Source of the DNA: Minisyncoccota bacterium
Lineage (GTDB): Bacteria > Patescibacteriota > Minisyncoccia > Phycocordibacterales > Phycocordibacteraceae
Direction of reading: 5' to 3'
Length of the DNA: 64,000 nucleotides
Assembly (NCBI GenBank): GCA_036399335.1
Contig: DASWNF010000014.1
Coordinates: 3,687-67,686, forward strand
In this document: positions 8,243 through 60,337 of the stretch, in pieces
Numbering within the stretch: position 1 is the stretch's first letter
How the letters are laid out: each line of letters opens with the position of its first letter
The notes under the pieces: model-generated
Seen by the model: only the letters and a program-made list of their open reading frames with translations
Told to the model about the DNA's origin: nothing
The model's database searches: none
Program-made: the position numbers and the translations under genes

Positions 8243-8364
<122 letters not shown>

Positions 8365-8755
8365 CTGGGCGCGTTCGACAGGGCGTCGACGCGTTAAATA
8401 CGTAAAGGTAATAGATAGCAATCACTTCAGTTAGTGCTATACAGAATTCCGCACCGGAACCATTGGACATATTAGTACTCCTCGACTGAACACATTGCTG
8501 TGCGTACATCTAGAGCCTATCAACCTAGTAATCTGCTAGGTGTCTCATAACGATTCCTAATCTTTGAGTGGGCTTCCCGCTTATATGCTTTCAGCAGTTA
8601 TCCCGTCCCGACGTAGCTACCCAGCGATGCTCCTGGCGGAACAGCTGGTAGACCAGAGGTCAGTTCACCCCGGTCCTCTCGTACTAGGGGCAACACTCAT
8701 CAAGAATCAACGCCTGTAGTAGATAGGAGACCAACCTGTCTCACGCATTTCGTTT

Positions 8756-9175
8756 GCTCCGATTACTCGGAGGATCGGACTGTAACTTCACCCGGGCTGG
8801 GTGACTGACATTCAGTCTCTACGGGCGCCAAGTGCACTCGCGTGAGCGAGCTGCTTTCTCCGCTTCCCTCGGTATTGCCCGCCGAGATTTTCTTAGCGGT
8901 ATTCCGCTTTAGAAAATCCAAGTGCAGTCGCTTTCTTAAGCGAGCTGCCCTCCTTATTAAGGCAGGTGGGGTTCCACCGATATGAGTCAGTTTGCTTGTA
9001 CGCATTCCTGCGTACAACCGCCGTGTCATGGTTGGTTCTATTCTTGTTTCAAGACGAAAAGACATTCACTCATCGCACTTTTTCGAATTCTGACAACAGA
9101 AATCTCGAAGGGATTCAAACGGTGTGAGAATCAATTCAAAGAATAAATCCTAAGTATCAATTCCCACACGGTTTG
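8756..9175 (-). other. ~420-nt insertion in 23S domain V at the L2593-like (I-CreI-type) intron site; putative ORF-less group I intron
   Basis: Conserved exon sequence GGTACGCGAGCTGGGTT is interrupted before ...AACGAAATGCGTGAGACAGGTTGG. The inserted block is AT-richer. The only ORF inside (8763..9065) has no homing-endonuclease motif. Confidence 0.6.
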
Positions 9176-9832
9176 AACCCAGCTCGCGTACCTTTTTAAT
9201 TGGCGAACAGCCAAACGCTTGGGACCTTCTCCAGCCCCGCGCTAAGGTGAGCCGACATCGAGGTGCCGAACTCCGCCGTCGCTATGGACGCTTGGGCGGA
9301 ACTAGCCTGTTATCCCCAGGGTAACTTTTATCCGTTAATCTCTGGCCGCATCTAAGGCGGACCATCGGTTCACTATGCTCTGCTTTCGCATCTGCTCGGG
9401 ATGTACCCCTCACAGTTAAGCCCACTTATGCCATTACACTATCGGCACGGTTTCCATTCGCGCCTAGTGGACCTTAATAGACTCCTCCGTTACTTTTTAG
9501 GAGGATAGCGCCCCACCAAAACTACCCGCCAGACACTGTTCCCGATTAGTTCTTAACCGGGTTAGAGACTGCACAATCCAAGAGTGGTATTTCACTGGCG
9601 ACTCCACGAGAGCCAAAACCCTCGCTTCAAAGTCTCCCACCTATGCTACGCATGGACCACACAGCCCCAATATCAAGCTGTAGTAAAGCTCCTGGGGTCT
9701 TTTCGTCTAACTACAGGTAACCGGCATCTTCACCGGTATTGCATTTTCACCGAGCGAGTCCTCGAGACAGTTTTCCACTCATTACGCCATTCGTGCACGT
9801 CTGAACTTACCAGACAAGGAATTACGCTCTAC

Positions 9833-10022
9833 TATTCCTCACAGTAGGACCATATCTTCACCCCATTGCTGGGGGCACGACGTATGGCCTCTCATTTGAG
9901 TCGTGGATTCAATTAACCTTTCGGTTAAAAGAGGTAGCTTCTTTGACGTTACCCTCTCGGGCTGTTTACGGTCTCCTATAATCGTCCCAATCCGTTCCGT
10001 ATCCGATTGCTCAGATACGGAA
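9833..10022 (-). other. ~190-nt insertion in 23S at the L1923-like (I-CeuI-type) site between GGTCCTAAGG and TAGAGCGTAATTCCTTGTC; putative small intron or intervening sequence
   Basis: E. coli-type sequence TAACTATAACGGTCCTAAGG|TAGCGAAATTCCTTGTC is split by 190 nt that end in ...AATAG and contain internal hairpins (ccgtatctgagcaatcggatacgg). Confidence 0.5.
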
Positions 10023-11463
10023 CCTTAGGACGATTATAGTTATCGCCGACATTCACCGGGGCTTATACGGCCTAGCAATACAAGTAAAACTCATATCACC
10101 GTCCGTGCTTGACCTTCCGGCATTGGTCAGGCGTCACCCCCTATACATCCTCTTACGAGTTCGCAGGGAGCTGTGTTTTTGGTAAACAGTTGGCAGAAAA
10201 TCTTTCGCTGCGGCCCCCATTGCTGGGGGCAGGCCTTATCGCTAACTTACGGCCGCTTTTTTGCCGAGTTCCTTGAGGACCTCTCACTCGTTCGTCTTAG
10301 TCTACTCGACCTGAACACCTGTGTCGGTTTCCGGTACGGTCGTCATATGCTGAAGCTTAGAAGTTTTTCTTGGAACCGCGCTCCTTACTCTCTGCTCCCC
10401 CGTGGGAGAACATTGCCGCTTCGCTCGGGGTTAATGTCTTCCGGATTTGCCTAGAAGACCCCCTCACTAACGGACCCAAATCCAATAATGGGCAATAAGT
10501 ACAGCAATCCGTCACTCCATCGCACATATGAGCGGTCATGGAATATTAACCATGTGTCCATCGGGTGCGGCTTTCGCCATCCCCTTAGGCCCGACTAACC
10601 CTCAGTTGATCATCATAGCTGAGGAAACCTTGTTCTTTCGACGTGCGGGGTTCTCACCCGCATTGTGGTTACTTGTGCCTGCATTCTCACTTCGCAACGC
10701 TCCACCATGGGTCACCCCTTTGGCTTCATCGCGGATGCGAACGCTCTCCTACCGCATACACCTCCCGAAGGAGATGCACACCCGCAGTTTCGGTACTACG
10801 CTTAACCCCGATCATCTTCGGCGCAAGGACTCTCGATGAGTGAGCTGTTACGCTTTCTTTAAATGGTGGCTGCTTCTAAGCCAACATCCTCATTGTCAAT
10901 GAATCCTCACTTCCTTAAGTTGTACTGAGCGTAGATTTAGGGACCTTAACTGGCGATCCAGGGCTCTTCCCCCTTCGACGAGTGGAGCTTCGCCCCCACC
11001 GTCTAACTGCCATGCTGTAACCTCTCGGTATTCGGAGTTTGATAGGGACAACGAGGTTTCCCCCTGTTTGCCCCTTCCAGTGCTCTACCCCCGGAGGGAT
11101 CACACGACGCTAGCCCAAAAGCTATTTCGGAGAGAACCAGCTATTACCAGGTTCGATTAGCTTTTCACTCCTTGCCACAGGTCATCCCAAGACGTTGTAC
11201 GATCTACGGGTTCGGTCCTCCATGTGTCTTTCGACACACTTCAACCTGCCCATGGCAAGCTCACCTGGCTTCGGGTCGTATGTATGCTACTGACGCGCTA
11301 TTAACACTCGGTTTCCCTGCGGCTCCGTCCCGTAACGGACTTAGCCATAGGCAACATACATACACTCGCAGGCTCATTCTTCAATAGGCACGCTACAACG
11401 GATACAAGACCCGCCGTAACCCTTTGTAAGTACACGGTTTCAGTTCTATTTCACTCCCCTCTC

Positions 11464-11509
<46 letters not shown>

Positions 11510-11734
11510 TTATGCATTATTTAGCCTTACCGGTTAGTTCCGGCAGATTCACTCGAGCTATTCGTGTCTCGAGCTACTCAAGAATAGGAGCACAAAAGAG
11601 TCGTTCATTTCGCGTACGGGGCCATTACCCTCTGTGGCGTTGCTTCCCAGCAACTTCCGCTATAATCGACTTTTGTAACTTTTGCCGTACAAGTACGGAG
11701 CTCCTACCTTACAACCCCCCTATCCGAAGGCAGA

Positions 11735-11768
<34 letters not shown>

Positions 11769-12322
11769 AAGGGAATCGCGGGAGTTGCCTTCCATCTGTT
11801 CGAAGCATCGAACAGACAGAAGGCAACTCGCTATTGTTTTCTATTCCTCTGGGTACTGAGATGTTTCACTTCCCCAGGTTCGCTTCCTACCTCAAATGGA
11901 TAGGATGACCATTACTGGCCGGGTTTCCCCATTCGGACACCTCCGGATCAAAGGCTACATATCGCCTCCCCGAAGCATTTCGCAGATTAGTCACGTCCTT
12001 CATCGCATGCATAAGCCAAGGCATCCACCGTGCACCCTTCAGTTTCCAGTGCGGAAACCTGAATACCACTTAACTTTATTTTTGTGATTGCAATATCATC
12101 TCACCCCCGCCATAAGCGGGAGCTCGTTGATTTACCTTTACGTATTCAACTGTCAAAGTGCACGTGTTTCTTGGCACGAAAAAAGCCGCCTCAGGGGCGG
12201 CGGAAAAGCTTTACAGCCGCTCCGTTATCCGCTCCGCTTGGTGAATAATTTCGTGGTTGTAAACACGTAGGAGGAGTATATACGTAGGGGTTTTCTGTGT
12301 CAAATAGGGGCAAGGGCAAACG

Positions 12323-12376: not shown

Positions 12377-13057
12377 CTAGCGTACCTGTTCGTGCATCCG
12401 CTCGATGATGCGCGCAGCTGCCTGTTGGCCGCCGAGGCCGAACGAGAGGCCAAAGGCGAGGGCAAGCGCGACTACGAAGGCGGTAAAGAGAGGCTGGATG
12501 AGCTCGCTCGCGATTTCAAGCTGGTTGAGCGCGGCGAGGATCGCGAAGATCCAGATAGCCCAACGGGCCAGGGATCCGAGGAGTTTGGCCGAGCGAAGAT
12601 TCGCTGCCGCCGCAGAAGCCGCAACCACCCTCTGTACTACGTCCGCGAGGACGGCCGCCACCAGAAGGATGAGGACAGCTACGATCACCTTCGGGAGATA
12701 CCCGAGAACGACGTTGCTCAAGAAGTCGGTTACCTGGTCGAGGCCGAGCACGCCAAATGCGGCAACGAGGAAGACGATGATGAAGAACCATTTCACGAGG
12801 CCGCCGAGGAATGCGCCTGCATTCATCCGGAGTCCTGCGCGCTCCACGATCGTCTCGACTCCTGCGGAGCGAAGCGCCTGGTCAACTTTGGCCGCATTCA
12901 CGGCCTGCGCGACGAGGCGCCCGAGACCTGCGCCGACGATCCATCCGAGGATGAAGAGCACGAGCGCAGCGAGTAGATTCGGAAGGAAGGCGATGACCCC
13001 GTGGAACATTGCGCGGAATGCATCCTCGAGAATAATCGCCCAGTTGTTTATGAACAT
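12377..13057 (-). CDS. membrane protein with repeated conserved-TM-helix (MscS N-terminal-like) segments
   Basis: ORF 12377..13102. Start moved to MFINNWAIILEDAF (ATG at 13057). Four or five TM helices with repeated AxxLxxxG patterns. Confidence 0.65.
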   Translation of the reverse strand: MFINNWAIILEDAFRAMFHGVIAFLPNLLAALVLFILGWIVGAGLGRLVAQAVNAAKVDQALRSAGVETIVERAGLRMNAGAFLGGLVKWFFIIVFLVAAFGVLGLDQVTDFLSNVVLGYLPKVIVAVLILLVAAVLADVVQRVVAASAAAANLRSAKLLGSLARWAIWIFAILAALNQLEIASELIQPLFTAFVVALALAFGLSFGLGGQQAAARIIERMHEQVR

Positions 13058-13175
13058 ATACGTTTTATACCGTGTAATCTGTAATACGCCGCAGCTCGTC
13101 AATAGGGCTGCTTACCTAAAAGTGTACCAAGCGGGCTAAACTTCGGATGAAGCTCTTCCCTAGAGTGTGGATAGG

Positions 13176-13203
13176 AAAAACCGGCGCCTAGCGCCGGTTT
13201 TAA
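13176..13203. terminator. bidirectional terminator hairpin
   Basis: aaaaaccggcgcctagcgccggtttta. Confidence 0.65.
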
Positions 13204-13778
13204 TTTGGGCTGAGGCCGATCTTGTCGACCAGGACCTGGTGCGGGAAGTCGAGGACGTCCCGGACGAGGCGGTCGTACACGCTTACGCGGTACCTGAAGT
13301 CTTCGGTGGCGAAGGCGGCGAACCGGAGCTCGCGCCCGAGCTCGGCCTCGAGCTTATGCACGCTCGCCTCAAGGGCCTTATCGTCGATGCGGTCCCCTAC
13401 CACGAGAAGGTCGATCTTCGACTCGACCGCGTCGCTGAATACGCCCGAGAGGACGACGAGGCGGAGCGTGCCCGCGCGCTTCAGGGTGGCGAGGATGACG
13501 GCGTCAGATAGACCTGACGAGGAGCTGAGGAAATTGCAGAGCGCCGCGAAGTGTTCGAACTTCGAGTCGGCGGCGAAGGTCGGGCCTCCCTTCCCCGCCT
13601 TCTTCTTGACCACGCCTGCAGTGACGAGGGTGTTGATCTCGCGCCGGGTCGCGTCCTTGGGCGTCTTCGTGCGTAGGGCAGCGTCGGCAAGGGTAAACGC
13701 CTGGTCGTCATTGAAGAGGAAGAGGCGGAGGAGTTTCAGGCGGGCGTTACTGCCGAACAGGCGTGCGAGGGGATCCAT
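13200..13778 (-). CDS. hypothetical protein with N-terminal winged-helix and C-terminal minimal nucleotidyltransferase-like segment
   Basis: 192 aa. LKLLRLFLFND...FTLADAALRTKTP...REINTLVTAGVV looks like a wHTH. LVVLSGVFSDAVESKIDLLVVGD resembles the GS-x9-13-D-x-D NTase motif. Confidence 0.5.
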   Translation of the reverse strand: MDPLARLFGSNARLKLLRLFLFNDDQAFTLADAALRTKTPKDATRREINTLVTAGVVKKKAGKGGPTFAADSKFEHFAALCNFLSSSSGLSDAVILATLKRAGTLRLVVLSGVFSDAVESKIDLLVVGDRIDDKALEASVHKLEAELGRELRFAAFATEDFRYRVSVYDRLVRDVLDFPHQVLVDKIGLSPN

Positions 13779-13825
13779 GAATGTTTCCCCATTCTACCCC
13801 CCTCCCCCGCCCGCGCAAGGTAACG

Positions 13826-13857
13826 AGAAAACCCGGCTGCAGAGCCGGGTTTTCTCG
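13826..13857. terminator. terminator hairpin after rplL
   Basis: gagaaaacccggctgcagagccgggttttctc. Confidence 0.7.
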
Positions 13858-13901
13858 TCCACGATACGTGGACCGCACGAAGTCGGATGCCGACGAGGAC
13901 G

Positions 13902-14405
13902 CTACTTGAGCGTAACCTTGCCGCCTGCCTCCTCCATCTTCGCCTTGAGTTCGTTTCCTTCCTCCTTGCTGACGTTCTCCTTGAGCACGGATGGAACGCC
14001 GTCGACAAGGTCCTTAGCCTCCTTGAGGCCGAGGGCGAGTACTTCCTTGACTGCCTTGATGACGGCAATCTTGTTTGCACCCGAGTCGGTGAGCTCAACC
14101 GTAACGGTAGACTTCTCGTCCTCACCGCCGCCTGCTCCGCCTGCTGCAGGACCGGCTACGGCTACGGCTGCCGCCGAAACGCCGAACTTCTTCTCGAAGA
14201 CCTTAACGAGCTCATGGAGTTCCATGACGCTCATCTTTTCGATCTCCTCGACGAACTTCTTGAACTTCTCGGGGACTTCGACTTCCGCCTCTGCTTCCGC
14301 AGGAGCTTCCGTCTTCTCCTCAGCTGCCGGAGCGGCCGGTGCCTCTTCGGCTGGAGCCGCTGCCGCTTCCTCAGTTCCCTCTTCCTGCTTTACTTCATCT
14401 GCCAT
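13902..14405 (-). CDS. rplL: 50S ribosomal protein L7/L12 with ~40-aa acidic/Ala-Pro N-terminal extension
   Basis: C-terminal [56 protein letters not shown] and hinge [13 protein letters not shown] are canonical. The N-terminal 40 aa [45 protein letters not shown] have no counterpart in standard L12. Confidence 0.9.
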
Positions 14406-14427
14406 GGTAAATAAATGACGTTATTAA

Positions 14428-14922
14428 TTACGCACCTTTCTTCTCTGCGACTGCATTAAGGACGATTGCGAGTCCCTGTATCGGGCTGTTGATGACATTC
14501 ACGAACATGCCACGCAGTACGTGTACCGGCGGTATGGTCGCGATGTTCGTCATCGCGGGGGCATCGAGGTACGAGCCCTCGAAGACGCCGCCGACGATCG
14601 AAAGCGCACCCTTGTGCTTCCTGCCGTGGTCATAGATGCCGCGGGCAGCGAGCGTCGGGTCTTCCGAAGTCCACGCAAGCGCTATCTCACCCGGCATGTC
14701 AGGCAAGGTGCCTGCGTAACCGCGTTCGTTGAGCGCGCGCTCGATGAGGGTTTTCTTTGCGACGTAGTAGCCGACACCCTCCCCCTTGAGCGACTTGCGC
14801 ATCGCAGACGTATCCGCGACCGAAAGGCCCTTGAAGTGGACGAAGACCACCGACACCGCGCCCTCGAGGACGTCCTTAATCTTAGCGACGATGTCCTGCT
14901 TTTTTTCCTTGGTAATTGCCAT
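14428..14922 (-). CDS. rplJ: 50S ribosomal protein L10
   Basis: ORF 14428..15111. Start moved to MAITKEKKQDIVAKIKDVLEG (ATG at 14922). L10 family and directly upstream of rplL. Confidence 0.85.
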   Translation of the reverse strand: MAITKEKKQDIVAKIKDVLEGAVSVVFVHFKGLSVADTSAMRKSLKGEGVGYYVAKKTLIERALNERGYAGTLPDMPGEIALAWTSEDPTLAARGIYDHGRKHKGALSIVGGVFEGSYLDAPAMTNIATIPPVHVLRGMFVNVINSPIQGLAIVLNAVAEKKGA

Positions 14923-15113
14923 ATGGTTTGTTGTTGTATACGAAACGGAAACGGCCCCCTTAGGGAGACCGTTTCTGAGGAGACATGCGAGACCGGGCGC
15001 AGGGCGCTCCGGTTTCGTCCCTCGGCCAGGCTTGTGCTTCCATATAAAGAAGCTGCTGGCTGTCTTCGGTCCGTACCCAGGCACTCTAGCCGAAACGGGG
15101 CCAGGGCGCAACC
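14923..15113 (-). promoter_or_regulatory. rplJL 5' leader (candidate L10(L12)4 autoregulatory leader)
   Basis: A ~190-nt GC-rich, hairpin-rich untranslated region precedes rplJ. The position matches the conserved L10 leader in other bacteria. Structure was not verified. Confidence 0.4.
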
Positions 15114-15239
15114 TTAAGCGCCTGCCGTAAAGGTGAAGAGGAAGAGCGAAACGCCGATGATAAGCACGAACGTGGCGAGGAACTTGAAGAAATGGGTGAT
15201 GTACTCCCCTACCGGCTGGTCATCGTGCTGCGGAGGCAT
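15114..15239 (-). CDS. candidate 41-aa single-TM peptide
   Basis: Minus ATG at 15239. MPPQHDDQPVGEYITHFFKFLATFVLIIGVSLFLFTFTAGA ends at TAA 15114. Lies between a terminator and the rplJ leader. No SD is visible. Confidence 0.25.
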   Translation of the reverse strand: MPPQHDDQPVGEYITHFFKFLATFVLIIGVSLFLFTFTAGA

Positions 15240-15255
15240 GCCTGCATCCTAGCAC

Positions 15256-15285
15256 GCAAAAAGCCGCCCGGAGGCGGCTTTTTGC
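15256..15285 (-). terminator. rho-independent terminator after 15298..16401 gene
   Basis: gcaaaaagccgcccggaggcggctttttgc. Confidence 0.75.
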
Positions 15286-15297
15286 AGAACGTTTTCG

Positions 15298-16401
15298 CTA
15301 GTCAGCGATGTGCACGTAATTCGTGCGGTACGTGCTTTCCGGGCGTGTCACCATCTCCTGGTCGGGAGCGCTTGCGGTGTCGTTGTAGTGGACGCCGAGG
15401 AGCTGCAGGCGGTAGAGCTGGCCCTCGTCTACCGCGAGCGGGTCGAAGACGACCGTGAGCATGAAGCGCTCAGACTCGTCTTCTTCGACGACATAGTAAC
15501 TCCCTTCCTCCTCAGCAGTCGCGTCGATGTACGCACTCAGACGTGTCTGGCTCGTAACTTCGTTTCCGTCAGAATCCTGTACTTCATAGTCGAGGGACAC
15601 GACCTCGTCCTGCGCAAGGTAGATATCGTCTCCAAAAGCGCGGAGTTCGAACTCTATCTCGAAGGTGGCGTAGTCATTATCAGCGCCACTGACCCGAGTC
15701 AACTCTGCGGAGGTCGAGACCTTATCGTTGCCATCATCATCTGAATCATCTGCAGTTTCCTCAACCTCATCAAGCGCTTCACCAATGAGGTCTTCTGCCT
15801 CCTCAACAAGTTCCACGGCTTCTTCGTAGTCTTCGTCTAGGAAAGCCTCCTCAGCGTCATCGATGCGGTCTTCTGCGTTTTCGAGGAAGTCCTCAGCATC
15901 GTCAGTGTCAGTCCCGTCGTCGTCTGCTTCTTCGACCTCATCACGAGCGTCCGTAAGCGCCTCTTCTACTGAATCAATTGCATCCCGGGCGTCAGACTTG
16001 CTCACCCTGTCATCCCCGTCGCCATCATTTCCTGGCACAGGTTCAGGAGCGGGGCCTTGGGTGACAGACAGTATGCGCGCACGAGTGATCGGACCGAAGT
16101 AACCAGCTGCTGGGCTGATGCCGACAGAAGCCTGGTAACGAGCGAGAGCTGCCTGCGTCTGGCCACCGAAGTAACCAGTTGCACCTGCAGCGATGACGAA
16201 GCCTCGTCCGATGAGCCAATTTTGGAGGGCGGTTACGTCGCTACCCATGGATCCTATCGTCAGGTCTCGGCTGAATGAGACTATGGGTGAGGCGTGAGAT
16301 ACGGCTGTGGTCGTCTGGGCCCCTACGCCGATCGCGAAGGATGAGGCGATAAGCCCGACGATTGCGAGCACGGCAAGTACCTTAGCAATGGTTTTATACA
16401 T
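15298..16401 (-). CDS. secreted peptidoglycan-binding-domain protein with long D/E-rich region (paralog A)
   Basis: Signal peptide MYKTIAKVLAVLAIVGLIASSFAIGVGA. PG_binding_1-like LQNWLIGRGFVIAAGATGYFGGQTQAALARYQASVGISPAAGYFGPITRA. Then ~120 aa of D/E-rich low complexity followed by a C-terminal beta-rich segment. Confidence 0.8.
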   Translation of the reverse strand: MYKTIAKVLAVLAIVGLIASSFAIGVGAQTTTAVSHASPIVSFSRDLTIGSMGSDVTALQNWLIGRGFVIAAGATGYFGGQTQAALARYQASVGISPAAGYFGPITRARILSVTQGPAPEPVPGNDGDGDDRVSKSDARDAIDSVEEALTDARDEVEEADDDGTDTDDAEDFLENAEDRIDDAEEAFLDEDYEEAVELVEEAEDLIGEALDEVEETADDSDDDGNDKVSTSAELTRVSGADNDYATFEIEFELRAFGDDIYLAQDEVVSLDYEVQDSDGNEVTSQTRLSAYIDATAEEEGSYYVVEEDESERFMLTVVFDPLAVDEGQLYRLQLLGVHYNDTASAPDQEMVTRPESTYRTNYVHIAD

Positions 16402-23594: not shown

Positions 23595-23729
23595 CTCCTG
23601 TGCTGTTTCTGGTCAGATACTACAGGGTCTGGCTAAAAAGTCATCTTGTACGCGACAGTGCGGCAAAAGAATGTTGGAACAATTTTGACAACCTCGTCCT
23701 ACGGGCGTATTTTTTCACTGGCAAGCAAC

Positions 23730-24620: not shown

Positions 24621-25313
24621 CTACTTTCTAATCCTTTTATGTTCGAATACTAGGTCGAGTTTCGATAAGTCCGCTATTTCGTAGCCTCGAGACCGTATAT
24701 TGCTAATGAGTGTCGACAGCATGCGTACCGTCCTGGCTGCCCTGGTTTGTAAGTCAGGGTCTTTTTCACTTCCGTCGTGCATGTTAATGATTGCGCCGTT
24801 ATGCAGCTGCACATTCACTTTGGCGAGCATGAGCGGCACGGGCATGGGCGTAAACCAGTCATGGGTAACGATTGAACAATCCATAACAACGACCTCTTTC
24901 TTCAAGATTTGTTCCCGTAGCGGTGGTTCAAAGAACTCTTTAGTCCTGAGCACCCCGTTATCGATGGCGCCATACCTAAGCTGCGGAACCCTGACATACC
25001 GGACAGGGAGTCCGGTAATACGCTCTATCGATTCATTCCCGAGCAGGAATTCATGGAAAGGCTCCTTCTGCGACGTCCCGCCATGCTTATGGCTATGCCC
25101 GCCAATCGTGTGCCCTTCCGCCTGGATGCGCCGCACGATTTCCGGGTACTGGTCTGCGCGCCTTCCTATGAGGAAGAATGTCGCTGTACAACCTTCCTGC
25201 TTGAGGATATCGAGTATTTGGGGAGTGGCGTACGGGTTTGGCCCGTCGTCAAAAGTGAGGGCGACGTTACGTTCCTGTGGGCTGCCTTTCTTTACTATAG
25301 GCAAGGTTTCCAT
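24621..25313 (-). CDS. polysaccharide deacetylase family protein (CE4/NodB homology)
   Basis: VALTFDDGPNPYATPQILDILKQEGCTATFFLIG plus His motifs HTIGGHSHKH. Start moved to METLPIVKKG. Confidence 0.85.
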   Translation of the reverse strand: METLPIVKKGSPQERNVALTFDDGPNPYATPQILDILKQEGCTATFFLIGRRADQYPEIVRRIQAEGHTIGGHSHKHGGTSQKEPFHEFLLGNESIERITGLPVRYVRVPQLRYGAIDNGVLRTKEFFEPPLREQILKKEVVVMDCSIVTHDWFTPMPVPLMLAKVNVQLHNGAIINMHDGSEKDPDLQTRAARTVRMLSTLISNIRSRGYEIADLSKLDLVFEHKRIRK

Positions 25314-25357
25314 GCCATAAGTGTACGTTATTGCTGACACGGACGTTGTGGAACTTC

Positions 25358-25861
25358 TTAAATAGGTGCACCTGAGGGAGTGTGCGTGAGCCCTTCTTCC
25401 AACCACTCGATTGGATATTCTTTTACTTCGATTCCGAGCTTAGATCCGACTTCTCTTTCCCACCTCGTGCCTATGGAACTCTCCCAGCCTGGCAAGAACA
25501 TAAATGCGTCAATGTACCCCGCTTCAAAAACACGCTGGTAAAAACGCTCGAGAATATCCATGCCGTACTCTTCCGAACCTTCCTTGTAATTACTGAGGCG
25601 AATGATGGCTTCCTGGAACGCGACTTGGTTGAATACCGTGATTCCCTTCGCTATGGCAATGTCCACCGCCCGCTGAAAACGCTGCATATTTTCTCGGAGG
25701 CTCCCCAGGCCTCCAGTGGACATCGGCCCACAAATTTGAACTATGGGCTGTCCTAAATCTCTCATGCGGGCAAGTATGGCAATGGCAATATCTGCCGCCT
25801 CCTCGTATGAATTCGCTTCCTTAAGCGCCTCCCGTTCTATCTCGGTCCAGTATTCATCCAT
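25358..25861 (-). CDS. nucleoside 2-deoxyribosyltransferase-like protein (DUF4406-like)
   Basis: PIVQICGPMSTGGLGSLRENMQRFQRAVDIAIAKGITVFNQV matches the ICGPM...N..F..A......G..VFNP pattern of DUF4406/NDT-like Rossmann proteins. Confidence 0.55.
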   Translation of the reverse strand: MDEYWTEIEREALKEANSYEEAADIAIAILARMRDLGQPIVQICGPMSTGGLGSLRENMQRFQRAVDIAIAKGITVFNQVAFQEAIIRLSNYKEGSEEYGMDILERFYQRVFEAGYIDAFMFLPGWESSIGTRWEREVGSKLGIEVKEYPIEWLEEGLTHTPSGAPI

Positions 25862-25896
25862 GCGTAAAGCATAGCAGCACCCGGCAGCTCTATTGC

Positions 25897-26319
25897 TTAT
25901 GAAAACTCCGGGATATCGAAGTTCTGGTAGTCGATGCCTTCGCGTACAAATACTTCCGATAAGTCCTTGGCATGATTGATCGAAGGATGTAATTGCATCA
26001 AAGAGCGTTTTGAGTGGCCGCCGATGATATATATTCTTACCGAGTTAGCGGCCTCACTGCGTGCGAGCATGACGCCGAGTTCGACGAACATGTCTGTTCC
26101 TCCCGGGTCACTAATGAGCACGAAAACATCAGTGGTGAGTACGGACTCCACTACCTGCGTAGCGAGGGCCTGAACGCGATTGAGGTTCTCTTCGTAAGGC
26201 TTCAAGCTATCCTGATACACCCAGTCGGCAGAAAACGTATGGCCCGTAGCTTTTAAGAATTCCGCCACCTGGAGCAGCTTCGGCTGATGACGAACGCGGG
26301 AGGCGAAATACCAATTCAT
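25897..26319 (-). CDS. nucleoside 2-deoxyribosyltransferase-like protein
   Basis: VFVLISDPGGTDMFVELGVMLARSEAANSVRIYIIGG matches the NDT D-x-G-T-x-FE-x-G motif, including the catalytic Glu context. Confidence 0.6.
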   Translation of the reverse strand: MNWYFASRVRHQPKLLQVAEFLKATGHTFSADWVYQDSLKPYEENLNRVQALATQVVESVLTTDVFVLISDPGGTDMFVELGVMLARSEAANSVRIYIIGGHSKRSLMQLHPSINHAKDLSEVFVREGIDYQNFDIPEFS

Positions 26320-26390
26320 GGAGGAATTCTACACCCACCTATTCATCTGCATAGGTATGAGGAATCAATTCCCGCAACTACTGCTCGACT

Positions 26391-26420
26391 CTGGAACGAC
26401 GTTAGAAATTCTCATACAGT
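26391..26420. repeat. conserved ~30-bp intergenic motif, copy a (divergent variant)
   Basis: tgctcgactctggaacgacgttagaaattc. Lies between divergent starts 26319(-) and 26457(+). Confidence 0.6.
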
Positions 26421-26456
26421 TATGTTAGGTTCTAGATTGGACAGAAGGAGGCCGGA

Positions 26457-26666
26457 ATGAGCAGAATATTAAACTTGGTTGCAGAAGATGAAGCCGTGCG
26501 GGTTATCGACGAACTCAAGGGAAGATTCGGGGTCAAAGAGGATGCGGAAGTCCTTCGGAAATCGCTCGCGGTTGCCAAATTCGCTTCCGAGCACACCGAT
26601 TCCGAAGGTACCCTTACCGTTCTCGGCGCCGACGGCTCTCAGCACAAGCTGAGCATCACGACCTGA
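26457..26666 (+). CDS. hypothetical small protein (69 aa)
   Basis: AAGGAGG 7 nt upstream of ATG. Followed by a hairpin and T7 terminator. Confidence 0.7.
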   Translation: MSRILNLVAEDEAVRVIDELKGRFGVKEDAEVLRKSLAVAKFASEHTDSEGTLTVLGADGSQHKLSITT

Positions 26667-26685
26667 TCGGCACACGCCGCCACGA

Positions 26686-26727
26686 CAGAAAGCCGTTGCT
26701 TTCTCTTGTGACGGCTTTTTTTATTGC
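26686..26727 (+). terminator. rho-independent terminator
   Basis: agaaagccgttgctttct stem then gacggcttttttt. Confidence 0.65.
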
Positions 26728-26750
26728 TGTGCTCTGGGACGATGTTGGAA
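26715..26750. repeat. conserved ~30-bp intergenic motif, copy b
   Basis: ttattgctgtgctctgggacgatgttggaac. Its right edge sits 3 nt from the TAA stop (26754..26756) of the 79-aa gene. Confidence 0.7.
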
Positions 26751-26753
26751 CTT

Positions 26754-26993
26754 TTATGGCCAGAGACCAGCCGAGGTAAACGGGAGGGATTCGTTTGTAA
26801 GGTCCTGAAACTTGCTACTTACTAGATACGCGAGAAGTCCGGCGAAACCAGGAATCGCGGTCAGCTGCATTATGGCCTTGGCACTTTGGTTATCAAGGAA
26901 AAAATAGGAAAAGGTAGAAAATCCGAATAGGGCTAGCGCAATTACCCATACTGACGTAACTAGGCCCATGAGGACTTTTGGGACAATATTCAT
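26754..26993 (-). CDS. hypothetical small membrane protein (79 aa, 2 TM)
   Basis: MNIVPKVLMGLVTSVWVIALALFGFSTFSYFFL.... TATACT-N7-ATG lies upstream. Confidence 0.65.
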   Translation of the reverse strand: MNIVPKVLMGLVTSVWVIALALFGFSTFSYFFLDNQSAKAIMQLTAIPGFAGLLAYLVSSKFQDLTNESLPFTSAGLWP

Positions 26994-27025
26994 TGCTCTA
27001 AGTATAGCGTTACTGCCTACACATG

Positions 27026-27051
27026 GCTGGGGTGTGGGACGACGTTAGAAC
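27026..27051. repeat. conserved ~30-bp intergenic motif, copy c (variant)
   Basis: gctggggtgtgggacgacgttagaac. Abuts the SDR gene stop at 27054. Confidence 0.6.
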
Positions 27052-27053
27052 TT

Positions 27054-27725
27054 TTACCACTGGAATTTCTCCCCATTAAACCAGAACTGGCCTGTTTCCA
27101 CGTCAGAGGTGGCCAGCTTGAAGATGGGCTCTGCAGCCTCCTCTGGGCTCAGGTCAGCATCATCGCCTCCCATATCAGTCCTCACCCAGCCGGGATGTAC
27201 TGATGAGACAATTATCCCCTTCCCTTCCAGCTGGAATGAGAGGACACGGGTAAACATATTTAGGGCGGCTTTAGAAATTTTGTAGTCTGGGTAATTTGCG
27301 TGGTGCGCATGACCAAGCGAGCCAGCCCTCGAAGAGACGTTAACGATATGGCCTGACTCGCTTATGAGTGGAAGGACCCTCTGAGTGAAGTCGATTGTCC
27401 CGATGAGATTAACCTCAAGCGTTTGTCGTAGCCAATCTATGCGTACCTCGTTAGGAGATTCTTCCTCGCTCTCATCTCCCGCCCAGATTCCTGCGTTGTT
27501 TATTAGAATATCTATCTTTTTTCCTAAGGCAGTGATCTCGTTAGAACATTCTTTGATACTTCCTGGTGACGCCAGATCAAGTTGTACGGATGCAAGATTC
27601 TCGTTCTCATATGAGAGCTTGCCGCCTGTTGAAGTGCCGATTACGAAGTATCCCTCGTTGAGGAACTTTTTTGCCAATGCCCTACCAATTCCTCTGCTTG
27701 CACCTGTTATAAGCGCGGTTTTCAT
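27054..27725 (-). CDS. short-chain dehydrogenase/reductase (SDR) family oxidoreductase
   Basis: MKTALITGASRGIGRALAKKF (TGxxxGIG), NNAG and YxxxK (YKISKAALN) motifs. The track start at 27731 is a TTG; the ATG at 27725 is preferred. Confidence 0.88.
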   Translation of the reverse strand: MKTALITGASRGIGRALAKKFLNEGYFVIGTSTGGKLSYENENLASVQLDLASPGSIKECSNEITALGKKIDILINNAGIWAGDESEEESPNEVRIDWLRQTLEVNLIGTIDFTQRVLPLISESGHIVNVSSRAGSLGHAHHANYPDYKISKAALNMFTRVLSFQLEGKGIIVSSVHPGWVRTDMGGDDADLSPEEAAEPIFKLATSDVETGQFWFNGEKFQW

Positions 27726-27743
27726 ACACAAAGCTTATCAGAT

Positions 27744-27771
27744 ATTGCTGGGCTCTGGGACATGTTGGAAC
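27744..27771. repeat. conserved ~30-bp intergenic motif, copy d
   Basis: attgctgggctctgggacatgttggaac. It is 5 nt from the TAA stop at 27777 and ~20 nt upstream of the SDR start. Confidence 0.7.
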
Positions 27772-27776
27772 TGTAT

Positions 27777-28148
27777 TTATGTGCCCGGTCGCAAGTGTTC
27801 CCACCACAAATAAAAAATAGCGACAGCTGCAATTGGAATGGATGTCCAGGGCGCAATTGTGTTCCAGAACAGCCATCCACAAAAAAGAAAGGCGGGGATG
27901 AAAACCAAAGGACTTCTGAAGGCGTGATAGCTGTTCGGTCGAAAAAGCGAGTACGAGGGCTTACCGTTACGATTCCACCACCATAAGTCGATTCCCATTA
28001 CGACGCTAAAGTACCCCACTAAGAAATAAATATTCCAGGAGTCACTTACCGTGAATAAAATAGCAATTGGAATAGCGATGTATATGATGACACCAAGCAG
28101 CGCATGCAAAACAGTCTTTACATCAAGAATCGCAAGCATTCGTTCCAT
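27777..28148 (-). CDS. hypothetical membrane protein (123 aa, 4 TM, Trp-rich)
   Basis: Hydrophobic segments. TGCTAGACT-N8-ATG lies upstream. Confidence 0.65.
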   Translation of the reverse strand: MERMLAILDVKTVLHALLGVIIYIAIPIAILFTVSDSWNIYFLVGYFSVVMGIDLWWWNRNGKPSYSLFRPNSYHAFRSPLVFIPAFLFCGWLFWNTIAPWTSIPIAAVAIFYLWWEHLRPGT

Positions 28149-28177
28149 GACTAGAGTCTAGCAGCTTGAAGGCGATT

Positions 28178-28206
28178 TTGTTGGCAGTCTGGGACGTTGT
28201 TGGAAC
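28178..28206. repeat. conserved ~30-bp intergenic motif, copy e
   Basis: tttgttggcagtctgggacgttgttggaac. It directly abuts the TAA stop (28207..28209) of the HD gene. Confidence 0.7.
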
Positions 28207-28797
28207 TTACAGTAATGGCTGATCGTATTTTCTTGCAATAGAATCCAAGTCAGGTTTACCGAATTTTACCTGCATCTGCTTAAACCTAACGACTTTGTCA
28301 TCACCATAACGAGATACGAAAGTGGAATAAGATTCTGGGCGGTTAAACCTGGGGGGCGTGGATTTTGAGTGGAACTTGTCAGCATACATGACAAGAAGTT
28401 CCTCATCAGTCTCCGCAAGATAATCCTGTAGCGGTAACGGTAACTTTTGTCGCACTACGTCGTCCCGAGTTAACCCCACTCCTGTGTGGTGCGACGCAAT
28501 ACGGCACAGTTCGTCAGGCAGTCTCTCAGCTCTGAGTAGTCCCTCCCCAAGAACGCCGTGCTTTGTATAACTAGGCCCAGAAAGCTCCTCGGCACTCAAT
28601 TCATAAACACCTATGTCGTGTAGCAGACAGCCCGCCTCAACTAATTCTTGATTTATCCTGAGACTGCAACTTGAAAGCAACTGCTGTGCTATTTCATTAA
28701 CTGCCCTGCAATGCGTAAATACCAGATCAAACGCCTCTACACTTGGCGCGTATTTTCTGTGCAATCTTTCGATTTCCTCGAATGTGGGGACTGTCAT
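28207..28797 (-). CDS. HD-domain phosphohydrolase
   Basis: H...CLLHDIGVYEL (HD motif) with further His/Asp residues in a ~190-aa protein. Confidence 0.75.
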   Translation of the reverse strand: MTVPTFEEIERLHRKYAPSVEAFDLVFTHCRAVNEIAQQLLSSCSLRINQELVEAGCLLHDIGVYELSAEELSGPSYTKHGVLGEGLLRAERLPDELCRIASHHTGVGLTRDDVVRQKLPLPLQDYLAETDEELLVMYADKFHSKSTPPRFNRPESYSTFVSRYGDDKVVRFKQMQVKFGKPDLDSIARKYDQPLL

Positions 28798-28820
28798 ACC
28801 AAGATTCTAGCAGCTCGGAT

Positions 28821-28849
28821 TTGCTGACAGTCTGGGACGTTGTTGGAAC
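28821..28849. repeat. conserved ~30-bp intergenic motif, copy f
   Basis: ttgctgacagtctgggacgttgttggaac. Located 24 nt upstream of the HD gene start, which has TGCTAGAAT-N6-ATG. Confidence 0.7.
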
Positions 28850-28908
28850 CTTTTTCCAGCTTCTGCTACATTCTGTCTAGACTTTCAACTTCACGTAAGG
28901 GGTAGGTA

Positions 28909-29166
28909 ATGCCTGAATCAAAGAAAGACGGGCCCAGGGAGGCTCATACTGCCGAATCTGTTAAGCAACTTTCTGGCGAAGTGTTGCTCGACACCTACGA
29001 CAGTCTGGTACGCGAAAGCAACCAGCTTTTGCCGGAGCTGTTCGGGGACGAGGTCCAGGGAAAAGTAGAACACCCGAAATATCAAGAGTGGAGGCAGATT
29101 GGAAGGAACATTCGTGTTCTACGAACTGAACTCGCCCTGCGCTTGAGAGACCAAACTGTTCACTGA
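28909..29166 (+). CDS. hypothetical small protein (85 aa)
   Basis: AAGGGG SD-like sequence upstream. Coherent charged helical sequence. Confidence 0.6.
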   Translation: MPESKKDGPREAHTAESVKQLSGEVLLDTYDSLVRESNQLLPELFGDEVQGKVEHPKYQEWRQIGRNIRVLRTELALRLRDQTVH

Positions 29167-29264
29167 GAAAATTGCCCGGGCTGCTGGAAGCGGGCTGGCA
29201 GGAATTGGACGAGGAGGACAAACCCATCAACTCCTGATCGCCCGCCAAACCCCTAAACTGACAA

Positions 29265-29300
29265 GGCCGCCCCAAGCGAAAGCAAGGGGCGGTTTTTCTT
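29265..29300 (+). terminator. rho-independent terminator
   Basis: ggccgccccaagcgaaagcaaggggcggtttttctt. Confidence 0.75.
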
Positions 29301-29303
29301 ATT

Positions 29304-29333
29304 AATTGCTGGCAGAATGGGTTTCAAACCTTT
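29304..29333. repeat. partial copy (j) of the conserved motif, plus orientation
   Basis: attaattgctggcagaatgggtttcaaacc shares TTGCTGGCAG. It is followed by TATAAT 6 nt before the ATG at 29358. Confidence 0.4.
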
Positions 29334-29699: not shown

Positions 29700-30761
29700 A
29701 TGCCAGCAAAGAAAGCAAAGAAACCAGCAAAGCCAACGGTGACCTCAGAAGAGGATGAGGCTCCCGCAGCAGACGAGGGCGGTAAAAGCCGCTCCATCGA
29801 GCTGGCTATTAAGAATATAAAGACCAAATTCGGTGATGAGGCAATCATGACCTTTGGTGCAGGCAAGCCTGCGGCCATCCCAACCATCCCGACGGGCTCC
29901 ATCGGGCTTGATGCGGCGCTCGGCGTTGGCGGACTTCCCTGCGGGCGCATCATCGAGGTCTTCGGCCCCGAGTCGTCGGGCAAGACGACACTCGCCCTCC
30001 ACGTCATTGCTGAAGCGCAAAAGAAGGGCGGTATCTGCGCATTCGTCGATGCCGAGCATGCGCTTGACCCTGAATACGCTAGAAAGATCGGAGTAAATTT
30101 GCAGGAACTCTTAATCTCGCAGCCGGATACCGGTGAGCAGGCGCTCGAAATCGTCGAGTCGCTCGTGCGTGCGAACTCCATCGCCGTCATCGTCATTGAC
30201 TCCGTTGCGGCCCTCACGCCGAAGGACGAAATCGAAGGCGACATGGGTGCGCACCACGTGGGTAAGCAGGCCCGCCTCATGTCCCAGGCGCTCCGCAAGC
30301 TCACGGCCATTACGTCAAAGTCAAACACCATCGTCATCTTCATCAACCAGATCCGCATGCAGATCGGTGTGATGTTCGGCAATCCCGAGACCACGCCGGG
30401 CGGCAAGGCGCTTAAGTTCTACACGTCAGTGCGCCTCGACATCCGCCGCATCGCGCAGATCAAGAAGGGCGAGGAAGTCGTCGGCGGCCGTACGCGCGTG
30501 AAGGTCGTAAAGAATAAGGTCGCGGCGCCCTTTAAGACGACCGAATTCGACCTCATGTATAACGAGGGCATCAGCCGCGAGGGTGAAATCATCGCCCTCG
30601 GCGAGAAGTTCGATATCATCCAGAAGTCAGGCGCGAGCTACAGCTACGGCGAAGTGAAGCTTGCCCGCGGGTACGACGCCACGCGCACGTTCCTCCGCGA
30701 GAATAAGCCGATTGCGACCAGTATTTTGAAAGAGATCCGCACGAAGCTTGCAGAGATCTAG
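29700..30761 (+). CDS. recA: recombinase RecA (with ~25-aa Lys/Ala/Pro-rich N-terminal extension)
   Basis: [13 protein letters not shown] Walker [11 protein letters not shown]2 loop [26 protein letters not shown]. Confidence 0.95.
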
Positions 30762-58780: not shown

Positions 58781-58921
58781 ATTAAAAAAGACCCGCGGGC
58801 CTTCAGTGGGAATAGGATACTACGGCCTATTTGCGGTGTCAATCGGTGATACTTGCCTACCCAGCCGTGGAACGAACTCGGTACTGACTATAAAAAACAA
58901 AGGGCCCGCATACAACGCGCC

Positions 58922-58950
58922 CTTTGCGGCTCTGGGACTATGTTGGGACG
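58922..58950. repeat. conserved ~30-bp intergenic motif, copy g (variant)
   Basis: ctttgcggctctgggactatgttgggacg. Abuts the TGA stop (58954..58956) of the nuclease gene, ~145 bp upstream of secE. Confidence 0.6.
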
Positions 58951-58953
58951 ATA

Positions 58954-59958
58954 TCAGGGCAGGGACTCACACGCATCCCCGTCCTTGTCTCCATCTAACC
59001 CATGTACGTCATTCCCTACCCCGCCACATGATTCATATACGCGCTGTGCTTCTGCGTGGGTGCTAAAGTCCGTGCAGTTATACGTGTTGTATGAGCAGGA
59101 GCCCGAGGATGCGGGGACAACGGGCTGCGGCTTGGGTGCGGGAGGCTGCTTCGTCACAGGCCCGTTTGCTACTGCAGAAGGTTCAGAAACAGATTTCTGG
59201 GGGACGGAACTATCACACACACCATCCGCCCAAAGGCCTGCCTTATTTGCCCTTGCAGTAATTTCTGCCTGCTTAAATGACGCCTGGTACCGGTATTCTC
59301 CGTCATACGTATATTCGTTGGCGTATCCTTCCTCAATAAGCTTCTGGGCCAGGTTTGTGCCGTCTTCTAGGAACACATAGGCTAAACGCCGCTGGTAGCG
59401 ATCATAGGTCCCTTGCGACTCATCAGTTTCTATATAGATATTCTTGCCAGATACGAGCGCCTTAGTTTGGTTGGATGCTTCGCGCCCGAAGCACTCAACT
59501 GCCTGTGTAGGATGTACCGTCTCCGGAGTATCTACACCTATAAGGCGTATGGTCTCCACGAAACCACCGATACGTACTTTTAGAGTATCTCCATCGACCA
59601 CATCAACTACTCGATAGGTAACGGCTGATCGCTCACCCTGCTCGACAGCAACCGCCTCTTCTTGAGCCTGTTCTCTATTGCCCGATGCTATCTCCGTAGC
59701 AGTTTCTCCTGTGGCAGGTATAAAGGTAAGAAATAAAAGAATCAGAACCGTTACTACTCCGCTCTTTATCCGGGAGCTTGGGGTAAAGGGGAGCTTCTTG
59801 GTAATACGCTTATATGTAAATGGCACGAGGGCAGCGCCAACAAGCAGCGCGATAAGTCCTGCCCAAGCTCCTTCAAATAGGTACGCAATGCCGATAAGAA
59901 CAAACAGCAACCCAAAACCCCATCCGGTAACAGTTTTAAGGAGATCTAATCTTTCCAC
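58954..59958 (-). CDS. membrane-anchored thermonuclease (SNase family) with C-terminal Excalibur Ca-binding domain
   Basis: Two N-terminal TM. SNase core [13 protein letters not shown]...[10 protein letters not shown]...RY..R. C-terminus [37 protein letters not shown] is an Excalibur domain. Confidence 0.85.
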
Positions 59959-60103
59959 CCAAAAAGGATAGCATTACTGGGCTCCGGAACTTTCTTAACC
60001 TAGTGCCACGTACATGGCCAAGCATCCACTGCCATCCCGACCATCATGAGGTTCTCAATGAGTGACACGAACCCTAGCGGTACCAGTCCTTATCTACGGA
60101 TAA

Positions 60104-60286: not shown

Positions 60287-60303
60287 AATTTAATTCTATA
60301 CCA

Positions 60304-60333
60304 GTTGCTGGGCTCTGGAGACGATGTTGGAAC
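60304..60333. repeat. conserved ~30-bp intergenic motif, copy h
   Basis: agttgctgggctctggagacgatgttggaacc. It is 4 nt from the TAG stop at 60338 and ~20 nt upstream of the 60286 start. Confidence 0.7.
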
Positions 60334-60337
60334 CATC

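Follow-up and report, generated by a model that had tools for sequence, protein, structure and literature searches.

A short motif recurs between successive small genes in a stretch of 64 kb from a Minisyncoccota bacterium (assembly GCA_036399335.1, contig DASWNF010000014.1; "the window" below means this whole 64-kb stretch). We conclude that the motif is probably an attR-type attachment-site junction of Patescibacterial integrative elements, delimiting single-gene cassettes that are anchored at tRNA ends. The sites are the junctions of mobile units, and units that bear a large serine recombinase (LSR) use the same junctions. Autonomous members of the family appear to encode the LSR, often together with a rolling-circle replication protein (Rep), and to target tRNA genes, mostly tRNA-Gln, inserting at their 3' ends or at free-standing copies of these.

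Patescibacteria (the Candidate Phyla Radiation, CPR) account for a large share of bacterial diversity, with tiny genomes and few recognised mobile elements. A 2025 survey described hundreds of Patescibacterial genomic islands, naming no mechanism and mentioning neither recombinases, integrases nor tRNAs (PMC12455944). No paper with the motif, or with tRNA-Gln cassette arrays in CPR, was found in a literature search of incomplete coverage, and an earlier description elsewhere is possible. The motif offers a searchable handle, an arm of 20 nt joined to a tRNA-end core, by which cassette limits can be recognised in ~200 loci, together with a candidate enzyme family; for annotation, it turns the low-GC islets of such genomes into cassette arrays with defined limits. 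If the interpretation is true, a serine integrase would drive an integron-like cassette system here; with tRNA ends as their natural targets and unusually loose half-site requirements, such integrases would be of interest for genome engineering.

A directional site between single-gene units

Two low-GC islets of the window hold arrays of the motif. An earlier note, made from the letters of the window, gave it as a 29-mer that reads on the plus strand; most genes between copies lie on the minus strand, and "gene-sense" here means minus (gene-sense form of the window site, GTTCCAACAnCGTCCCAGAnnnCAGCAA). The nine copies that the note listed were borne out by pattern searches, shuffled controls and a position weight matrix (PWM) scan, with one position moved from 26715 to 26724. 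On the plus strand they occupy 26385-26410 (weak), 26724-26751, 27025-27051, 27745-27771, 28178-28206 and 28821-28849 in the first islet, and 58921-58949, 60305-60333 and 60786-60814 in the second. These nine clear copies and about five decayed ones share a single orientation, with 0 expected by chance. At ≤3 mismatches the 29-mer has 0 matches in dinucleotide-preserving shuffles, and its 19-nt core (TCTGGGACGnTGTTGGAAC) was found 6 times against 0.05 expected from the same kind of shuffle; matches to either are confined to the plus strand and to the two islets. The PWM scan returned seven ungapped copies, on one strand throughout, the remaining two (27745 and 60305) carrying 1-2-nt indels. 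Further decayed copies lie at 25331-25354, 59972-59996 (with an internal deletion) and perhaps 23652-23680, and two 24-nt variant "start" sites at 29306-29329 and 61627-61650.

Two other claims of the note held when measured. The stop codon of the upstream gene falls 0-5 nt before the GTTCC of the site, the gaps for seven genes being 0, 5, 2, 2, 3, 4 and 4 nt (gene ends 28207, 27777, 27054, 26754, 25358, 60338 and 58954), and the distance in the window from the CAGCAA end of the site to the next ATG is 17-65 nt. The islets have a GC content of 46-52%, against a background of ~61%.

We searched a species-representative genome collection and metagenome stretches, in which individual loci are named by L-numbers. 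The core is present in at least 119 genome stretches, almost all of them metagenome-assembled genomes of Patescibacteria, with up to 7 copies per 8-kb piece, and a longer pattern matched 97 metagenome stretches, the richest of which have 11-12 copies. Hosts include Paceibacterota/Parcubacteria, Kaiser-, Nomura-, Wolfe-, Moranii-, Levyi- and Berkelbacteria, and bins labelled "Saccharibacteria". Across ~200 Patescibacteria loci the site measures 29-35 nt and reads, in gene-sense, (A.AAAG)GTTCCAACATCGTCCCAGAC.GCCAGCAA; in 145 instances the conserved span runs from -6 to +29 (A.AAAG GTTCCAACATCGTCCCAGAC n GCCAGCAA), with unconserved flanks. It comprises an element-borne arm of ~20 nt (GTTCCAACATCGTCCCAGA), preceded by A.AAAG and nearly invariant across lineages (~470 copies), and a core of ~9 nt that copies the 3' end of tRNA-Gln (nGCCAGCAA). 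Mixed orientation was seen in 0 of 200 loci with canonical sites.

No dyad or self-complementarity was detected in the 35-nt site, whose two strands fold at -1.0 and -4.1 kcal/mol, and inverted 8-mer partners within 150 nt are not enriched (115 of 143 instances, versus 98-119 in shuffled controls). No Rfam family matches either islet at E≤1. Inverted XerC/XerD arms of the Xer/dif type were not found in the site, all copies being direct, and a Xer/dif-like site was rejected for lack of such arms. The GTTGGAAC end resembles a CRISPR repeat handle, but the units between sites are genes of ~0.5 kb (median 522 bp over 193 units, usually one gene each) and not non-coding spacers of 25-50 nt, in line with the earlier note's dismissal of a CRISPR array. 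Phage carriers were also rejected: all 34 matches in IMG/VR (L122-L155) represent one unrelated conserved coding context of Rhodobacterales type. There, and in ~17 Rhodobacterales genomes (L008, L020, L033 and others), the 19-mer GTTCCAACATCGTCCCAGA sits inside a conserved coding sequence (cggccgtcgaagGTTCC...), which looks like a coincidence in a gene of phage or gene transfer agent type.

Open reading frames (ORFs) in the units have a median length of 140 aa; 131 are in sense and 81 in antisense orientation (~38% inverted). Among 150 cassette ORFs we counted 63 Pfam families with no common theme, including NUDIX, HAD, serine and alpha/beta hydrolases, histidine phosphatases, methyltransferases, HD, short-chain dehydrogenases (SDR) and GNAT. 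The cassette genes of the window are mutually unrelated as well: an HD hydrolase, an SDR, a polysaccharide deacetylase, a DUF4406-like protein and small membrane proteins. Whatever the GC content of the host, that of the arrays regresses toward ~0.47, a compression expected for a shared cassette pool.

Related genomes with common core flanks hold different cassettes, bounded by the motif, as the note had envisaged for a cassette boundary. L013 and L101 have both core flanks in common and differ between them (3.8 kb with 7 sites versus 1.7 kb with 3 sites), and L067 and L095, also with common core flanks, have 2 and 4 sites; in the pairs L074/L097 and L024/L111 the flanks are 91-93% identical from 4 nt before the last site, and the cassettes upstream are unrelated. 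One cassette can also recur in different arrays (L004 and L115, L013 and L120, L013 and L053, L040 and L095, L010 and L068), with homology that stops at the sites; that of L040 and L095 occupies an internal position in one array and the first position in the other. The homology limits of recurring cassettes are the outer edges of the two flanking sites, beginning 0-2 nt past ...CCAGCAA. A selfish intergenic repeat of the REP/MITE kind, lying among ordinary resident genes, would likewise be short, abundant and intergenic, but relatives differ by whole gene-plus-site units rather than by site insertions, and the uniform orientation, the tRNA-anchored arrays and the lack of a palindrome argue further against it; we find this explanation scarcely credible.

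Some units carry cargo of another kind. In L258 (663-6456) and L103 (3944-5284), a ThsB-like TIR protein, a zeta-toxin-like kinase, a DUF2726 protein and a STAND/AAA NTPase are encoded in units between or next to sites, and the arrays may also be small defence islands.

Tandem, mostly single-ORF cassettes whose content varies between relatives are a hallmark of integrons, and the earlier note had offered, as one of two readings, a cassette-boundary element analogous to attC. Its boundary part stands, as the motif bounds units that differ between relatives and recur in other arrays; the motif itself, however, is not an attC. If this were a chromosomal integron or a CALIN (attC sites clustered without an integrase), with the motif as part of attC, then the tandem single-ORF units, the abutting stops, the many genes of unknown function and the lower GC would fit. 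Yet the R''/L''-L'/R' inverted repeats of attC are missing (one strand folds at just -1.0 kcal/mol, and inverted partners are not enriched), IntI was found in 0 of ~200 loci, every cassette brings a promoter of its own, arrays are anchored at a tRNA-Gln 3' end and not at attI, and the linked enzyme is a large serine recombinase, leaving this account highly improbable. The search for intI or other tyrosine recombinases near other copies, which the note had proposed, gave a single Xer-like gene in ~100 genome loci and none in the 97 metagenome loci.

The note's other reading, a shared operator or promoter element of an accessory-gene regulon, was mostly wrong; one part of it holds. TTGGAA, read outward from the GTTCC end, stands 17-18 bp from TAnnnT in 100 of 474 sites (21%), against ~10 per offset elsewhere (~10x background); the site end therefore provides antisense-oriented neighbours with a -35 box, among them the genes at 28909 and 26457 in the window. 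On the other side, the leaderless signature TAnnnT-N5-8-ATG occurs within 80 nt in 166 of 474 sites. For all minus-strand cases in the islets the next gene is preceded by TAGAAT, TAGACT, TATACT, TAAGCT, TACACT or TATGCT, 6-7 nt and the ATG, with no Shine-Dalgarno sequence and often with an extended TGn (24621-28797, 58954-60766); to judge from these signals, the minus-strand mRNAs look leaderless. Plus-strand islet genes have a leader with AGGAGG. In favour of a regulon are the outward promoter and the three TnCCAG-like direct repeats of the element. Against it, the sense-side spacing between motif and -10 ranges from 6 to ~55 nt in the window and is broad elsewhere, so that no fixed position relative to the core promoter of related genes was found; at ~40% of sites the next gene is convergent and has its 3' end toward the site; neighbouring genes are functionally unrelated; and the sites coincide with indel breakpoints between related genomes. 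We consider a regulon very improbable as the explanation of the motif. The same spread of distances (6 to ~55 nt) excluded the motif as the -35 of sense-oriented leaderless genes, and a sigma-54 or extracytoplasmic function (ECF) promoter built from TGGGAC/GGAAC was rejected because spacing and strand do not fit.

tRNA ends and the linked serine recombinase

Arrays start at tRNA ends. Among tRNAs near sites, tRNA-Gln makes up 26 of 47 in the genome set and 13 of 17 in the metagenome set, and it lies upstream of the sites and co-oriented with them in 25 of 26 and 13 of 13 cases, respectively (38 of 39 overall). A tRNA-like fragment consisting of T-arm and acceptor stands ahead of the first site in 68 loci. 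The homology between L067 and L095 ends right past a variant site, TAG GTTCGA(A/T)ACCTAGTCTGCCAGCAA, which a search identified as the T-arm and acceptor 3' strand of tRNA-Gln. Without a tRNA, arrays start at a free-standing 24-nt copy of the tRNA-Gln end, as is seen after ychF, after tRNA-Pro, after an HI0933-like gene and in both window arrays; dnaX, ychF, the gene of the HI0933-like flavoprotein and dus are the usual core neighbours of the loci. Tycheposons, too, integrate at the 3' end of a tRNA and have direct repeats derived from it; their integrase is a tyrosine recombinase, whereas the enzyme linked here is a serine recombinase.

Cassette-type and tRNA-type sites have the last ~14 nt and the initial (A)GGTTC in common, the cassette type being 5 nt longer in the middle (29 versus 24 nt), which displaces the common distal AGGTTC by 5 nt. 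In serine integrases the motif bound by the zinc-ribbon domain is 5 bp closer to the centre of attB than to that of attP (PMC3783163), and the two types of arm reproduce this displacement at the level of sequence.

Two start regions deserve separate mention. In L074/L097 one array ends just upstream of the HI0933-like flavoprotein gene and a tRNA-Gln-like start site follows right past its stop (gcgtaaGTT(C/T)GATCC...), and therefore the gene has arrays on both flanks. L179 (8-122) has a complete tRNA-Gln with an atypical T-arm (CTAGGATCGTACCCTAG) and, 14 nt on, a free-standing canonical tRNA-Gln 3' fragment, at which its LSR element sits; the fragment may be a decoy landing site that spares the tRNA.

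The candidate enzyme came from two loci with an unusually long gap between tRNA-Gln and the first site, both of which hold an LSR and a Rep_ORF2/RepSA-like replication protein. The LSR has a Resolvase + Recombinase + Zn_ribbon architecture (486-502 aa) and is present in L179, L231, L071, L188 and L212 (the last three by tblastn, the copies of L188 and L212 being truncated at contig starts). Its family comprises 2609 proteins at E≤1e-20, which are Parcubacteria/Paceibacterota recombinases where sources name them. The gene is always antisense and tRNA-proximal, with its 3' end abutting the tRNA (...CAGC|AT...), and the unit always closes with a canonical site. All six LSR homologue contexts examined (L256-L261) show the same layout, for 11 related loci in all; in L256 the LSR unit is followed by at least 7 further sites.

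In these units the tail of the site changes with the tRNA. The LSR of L257 abuts tRNA-Lys, and its distal site (GTTCCAACATCGTCCCA + TAGGGCGGAC) matches the tRNA-Lys end with a 9-nt common block, AGGGCGGAC; that of L261 abuts tRNA-Ser, and the site tail CACTCTCCGC matches tRNA-Ser with a 12-nt common block, CACACTCTCCGC; in the tRNA-Gln cases the block common to tRNA end and distal site is (C)CAGCA. All of these have the form of LSR attL/attR junctions, a common core between host- and element-derived arms. As the tail follows the target tRNA (Gln, Lys, Ser), the motif is modular, an element-borne arm joined to a target-tRNA core, as expected of an attR junction. From these sequence relationships we infer that the LSR acts on the sites, with a crossover that would fall inside the tRNA-identical core.

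In L259 (8001-17084) two LSR genes of the family lie within 9 kb, one abutting tRNA-Ser, and in L258 a second LSR (15012-16301) is found 5.5 kb from the first, which suggests tandem or nested elements. A sub-family in L002, L005, L041, L082 and L092 joins the same 20-nt arm to ATGGTGCAC as its tail; L041 and L082 have, 370-850 nt upstream of such sites, a 3' end like that of tRNA-Leu (..C(G/T)GGCAC), and the sub-family may be a variant directed at tRNA-Leu. The link of the "GATGGTGCAC" sub-family to tRNA-Leu is no more than suggestive, while the idea that it forms the 3' end of an RNA gene was dropped, ARAGORN and Rfam giving no RNA that ends there.

The same observations could be read as a graveyard, in which whole elements integrated repeatedly at a tRNA, in the manner of tycheposon islands, and later lost their recombinase and replication modules, leaving attR junctions as inert scars between immobile cassettes. 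The tRNA-proximal integration of LSR elements, which would push older material outward, fits this view, as do the many decayed copies (in the window, for example, at 26385, 25331, 59972 and 23652) and small cassettes without the P' of LSR elements. But in hundreds of units the cassette starts 0-2 nt past the core before it, a precision not to be expected of random deletions; the same single cassette occurs at a different position in the array of another genome, with the sites alone in common; and a 20-nt arm nearly invariant across lineages is hard to square with neutral scars. We judge inert scars unlikely.

Exchange could instead depend on natural transformation and on homologous recombination by RecA, for which the repeats would offer short anchoring homologies, the LSR serving the larger autonomous elements alone. 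Patescibacteria carry competence and recombination genes (dprA is found in L260, and recA next to the first window array), and some sites have single-nucleotide variants private to one genome, suggesting gene conversion: between the related cassettes at L004 5442-6201 and L115 2258-3020, both flanking sites of L004 have CCCACAC in place of CCCAGAC, a variant not in the L115 sites, which suggests homogenisation of sites within the genome. A length of 29-35 bp, however, is near or under the minimum for efficient RecA exchange, and strict orientation, tRNA anchoring and tails that track the target tRNA of the linked LSR would go unexplained, making this route quite improbable.

If the sites are attachment junctions, as we prefer, cassettes could move as follows. 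A small integrative, plasmid-like element with the LSR, with or without Rep, would dock at the tRNA-Gln end or at a decoy copy, and the LSR would integrate it by a crossover in the tRNA-identical core. Once integrated, each motif copy further down could act as an attR-like excision partner: excision at the nearest copy would leave the cassettes directly abutting the tRNA core, and excision at a farther copy would carry cassettes away, so that alternative attR sites would allow drop-off and pick-up. Such a model would account for the uniform orientation, the precise junctions, the rare LSR in first position, the conserved arm and the decayed distal copies. That integron-like capture of this kind is driven by the LSR, with every downstream motif copy a usable attR, and that it feeds a shared CPR cassette pool and explains much accessory-gene flux, is a serious possibility that we advance tentatively.

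Several observations weigh against these interpretations. Neither a tyrosine nor a serine recombinase, the LSR included, was found across the 64-kb window, consistent with the earlier note's remark that it saw no integrase gene; as no LSR is encoded there, the window arrays would be passive at present. Only 5 of ~200 loci selected by their sites have an LSR, and no recombinase was found among the largest cassette ORFs. A serine integrase dimer normally needs a second half-site. In small cassettes the P' of LSR elements is absent (6 of 493 above the 99th percentile of controls), the right flank is unconserved, and two half-sites in approximate dyad symmetry round a central dinucleotide were not found; the idea that the P arm and the LSR-side P' are related by a dyad was rejected as unconvincing. 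The model leaves this missing half-site unexplained, and LSR crossover in the core gives no account of how the free-standing tRNA-Gln 3' fragments arose. Site tails co-vary only weakly with the local start site (0.694 vs 0.663, permutation p ~0.04). An exact-protein look-up for strain-level cassette variation found none, the sole other assembly (SRR10954984) having the same gene order up to where its contigs simply end, and neither circular intermediates nor junction variants at the level of strains came to light.

The two arrays of the window

Array 1 extends from 29.3 kb down to about 25.3 or 23.7 kb; features of both arrays lie on the minus strand unless stated otherwise. It begins at 29306-29329 with a free-standing fragment like the tRNA-Gln 3' end (24 nt, gene-sense GTTTGAAACCCATTCTGCCAGCAA), an attB-like site of type B. 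This type is the true tRNA-Gln 3' end in 39 related loci and also begins the arrays of L067/L095 and L013/L101. The first cassette (28850-29305, plus strand) holds an antisense-oriented 85-aa gene (28909-29166) and a terminator, and its promoter, TTGGAA-N18-TACATT, takes the -35 from the canonical site at 28821-28849 (GTTCCAACAACGTCCCAGACTGTCAGCAA). Next come a leaderless gene (TAGAAT-N6-ATG) for an HD-domain phosphohydrolase of 196 aa (28207-28797), a homologue of which also lies behind the same site type in L056, and, 0 nt past its stop, the canonical site at 28178-28206. Leaderless genes and sites then alternate: a 123-aa membrane protein (27777-28148) and a canonical site 2 nt below consensus length (27745-27771); an SDR of 223 aa (27054-27725) and a diverged canonical site (GTTCTAACGTCGTCCCACACCCCAGCC, 27025-27051); and a 79-aa membrane protein (26754-26993) and a canonical site (26724-26751), followed by a bidirectional terminator hairpin (26690-26722).

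The distal part of the array is more decayed. A cassette at 26411-26723 (plus strand) has an antisense-oriented 69-aa gene (26457-26666) with the promoter TTAGAA-N18-TAGGTT, its -35 coming from the decayed site at 26385-26410 (AATTTCTAACGTCGTTCCAGAGTCGA). The segment 25358-26319 contains two leaderless genes, for a 140-aa protein (25897-26319) and a DUF4406-like protein of 167 aa (25358-25861), with no recognisable site between them. Beyond a decayed site with internal deletions (GTTCCACAACGTCCGTGTCAGCAA, 25331-25354) lies a leaderless gene for a polysaccharide deacetylase of 230 aa (24621-25313). A possible last decayed site, GTTCCAACAT followed by unrelated sequence, occupies 23652-23680 and resembles the decayed terminal copies of L067/L095; because this site is tentative, the distal limit of array 1 is uncertain. 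At its other end the array adjoins recA (29700-30761), ~370 bp from the start site with a 106-aa gene between; this RecA has an N-terminal extension of ~30 residues rich in Lys, Ala and Glu.

Array 2 (58.9-61.65 kb) starts at 61627-61650 with another tRNA-Gln 3'-like fragment (GTTCGAAACCTAGTCTGCCAACTA), directly past the terminator of a core SIMPL gene. Its first cassette (60815-61626, plus strand) holds an antisense-oriented gene of ~235 aa (from 60945) and abuts the canonical site at 60786-60814. A leaderless 142-aa gene (60338-60766; TAGAAT-N6-ATG) precedes the canonical site at 60305-60333, in which a 1-nt core insertion is offset by a deletion before the tail, the length staying at 29 nt. 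A leaderless 60-aa gene (60104-60286), a remnant site with an internal deletion of ~11 nt (AAGAAAGTTCCGGAGCCCAGTAATG, 59972-59996) and a gene for a 334-aa membrane-anchored protein (58954-59958) follow, up to the last site (GTCCCAACATAGTCCCAGAGCCGCAAAGG, 58921-58949). The 334-aa ORF is probably the source of the window's single Staphylococcal-nuclease (SNase) domain match.

A third low-GC region, at 8-12 kb, is no islet; its composition is explained by 23S and 5S rRNA at 8254-12051, and its TTGCTGGGGG repeats are rRNA sequence. The 23S rRNA (8450-12051, minus strand) is 3602 nt long against a 2925-nt model, with ~680 nt of insertions, and the 5S rRNA lies at 8254-8361 (minus strand). No 16S match was found in the window at 12-15.3 kb, and the longest ORFs at 12405-15111 translate to low-complexity Arg/Ala/Ser-rich sequence that looks unlike real proteins.

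Comparison with known systems

With integrons the arrays have in common tandem, mostly single-ORF cassettes, each closed by a recombination site that often swallows the stop codon, as well as a fixed array start, rapid turnover between relatives, diverse and often unknown cargo and a single site orientation. In contrast to the folded attC of 57-141 nt, the site here is an asymmetric duplex of 29-35 nt; arrays start at the tRNA-Gln 3' end or a copy of it, without IntI, rather than at attI; the linked recombinase is an LSR, usually absent from the array; and cassettes have their own, mostly leaderless promoters, with ~38% of array ORFs inverted.

The pdif modules of Acinetobacter and other Xer-dependent integrative elements (IMEX) are likewise small gene modules bounded by short recombination sites (28 bp), and their recombinase, too, is encoded elsewhere. 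In pdif sites the XerC and XerD arms form a dyad and the orientation alternates, but the sites described here are asymmetric, all direct and tRNA-anchored.

LSR elements and prophages have the same Resolvase + Recombinase + zinc-ribbon architecture, a recombinase gene next to one junction (here in the 11 related loci, though neither in the window nor in most site-selected loci), hybrid junctions with a short common core, and an element-type arm 5 bp longer than the host-type arm with a common distal motif (Rutherford et al. 2013, PMC3783163). The Patescibacterial elements differ in that their host site is the end of a tRNA gene, in the tandem repetition of the element-type arm round cargo-only single genes, and in the lack of a conserved second half-site for these cargo-only units. 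We know of no description of LSRs using multiple alternative attR sites.

Tycheposons and the genomic islands of Prochlorococcus are likewise tRNA-adjacent, with older material pushed outward, tRNA-derived repeats between units, and niche-gene cargo in streamlined genomes without classical mobile elements (10.1101/2020.12.28.424599). They employ tyrosine recombinases and have partial-tRNA repeats and multi-gene units or remnants, whereas here no more than ~9 nt of the repeat are tRNA-derived, a conserved element arm makes up the rest, and each unit is one gene of ~0.5 kb. Overall, the system works like an integron yet lacks the attC structure, IntI and attI; apart from two-half-site symmetry, it displays several of the defining features of serine-integrase attachment sites.

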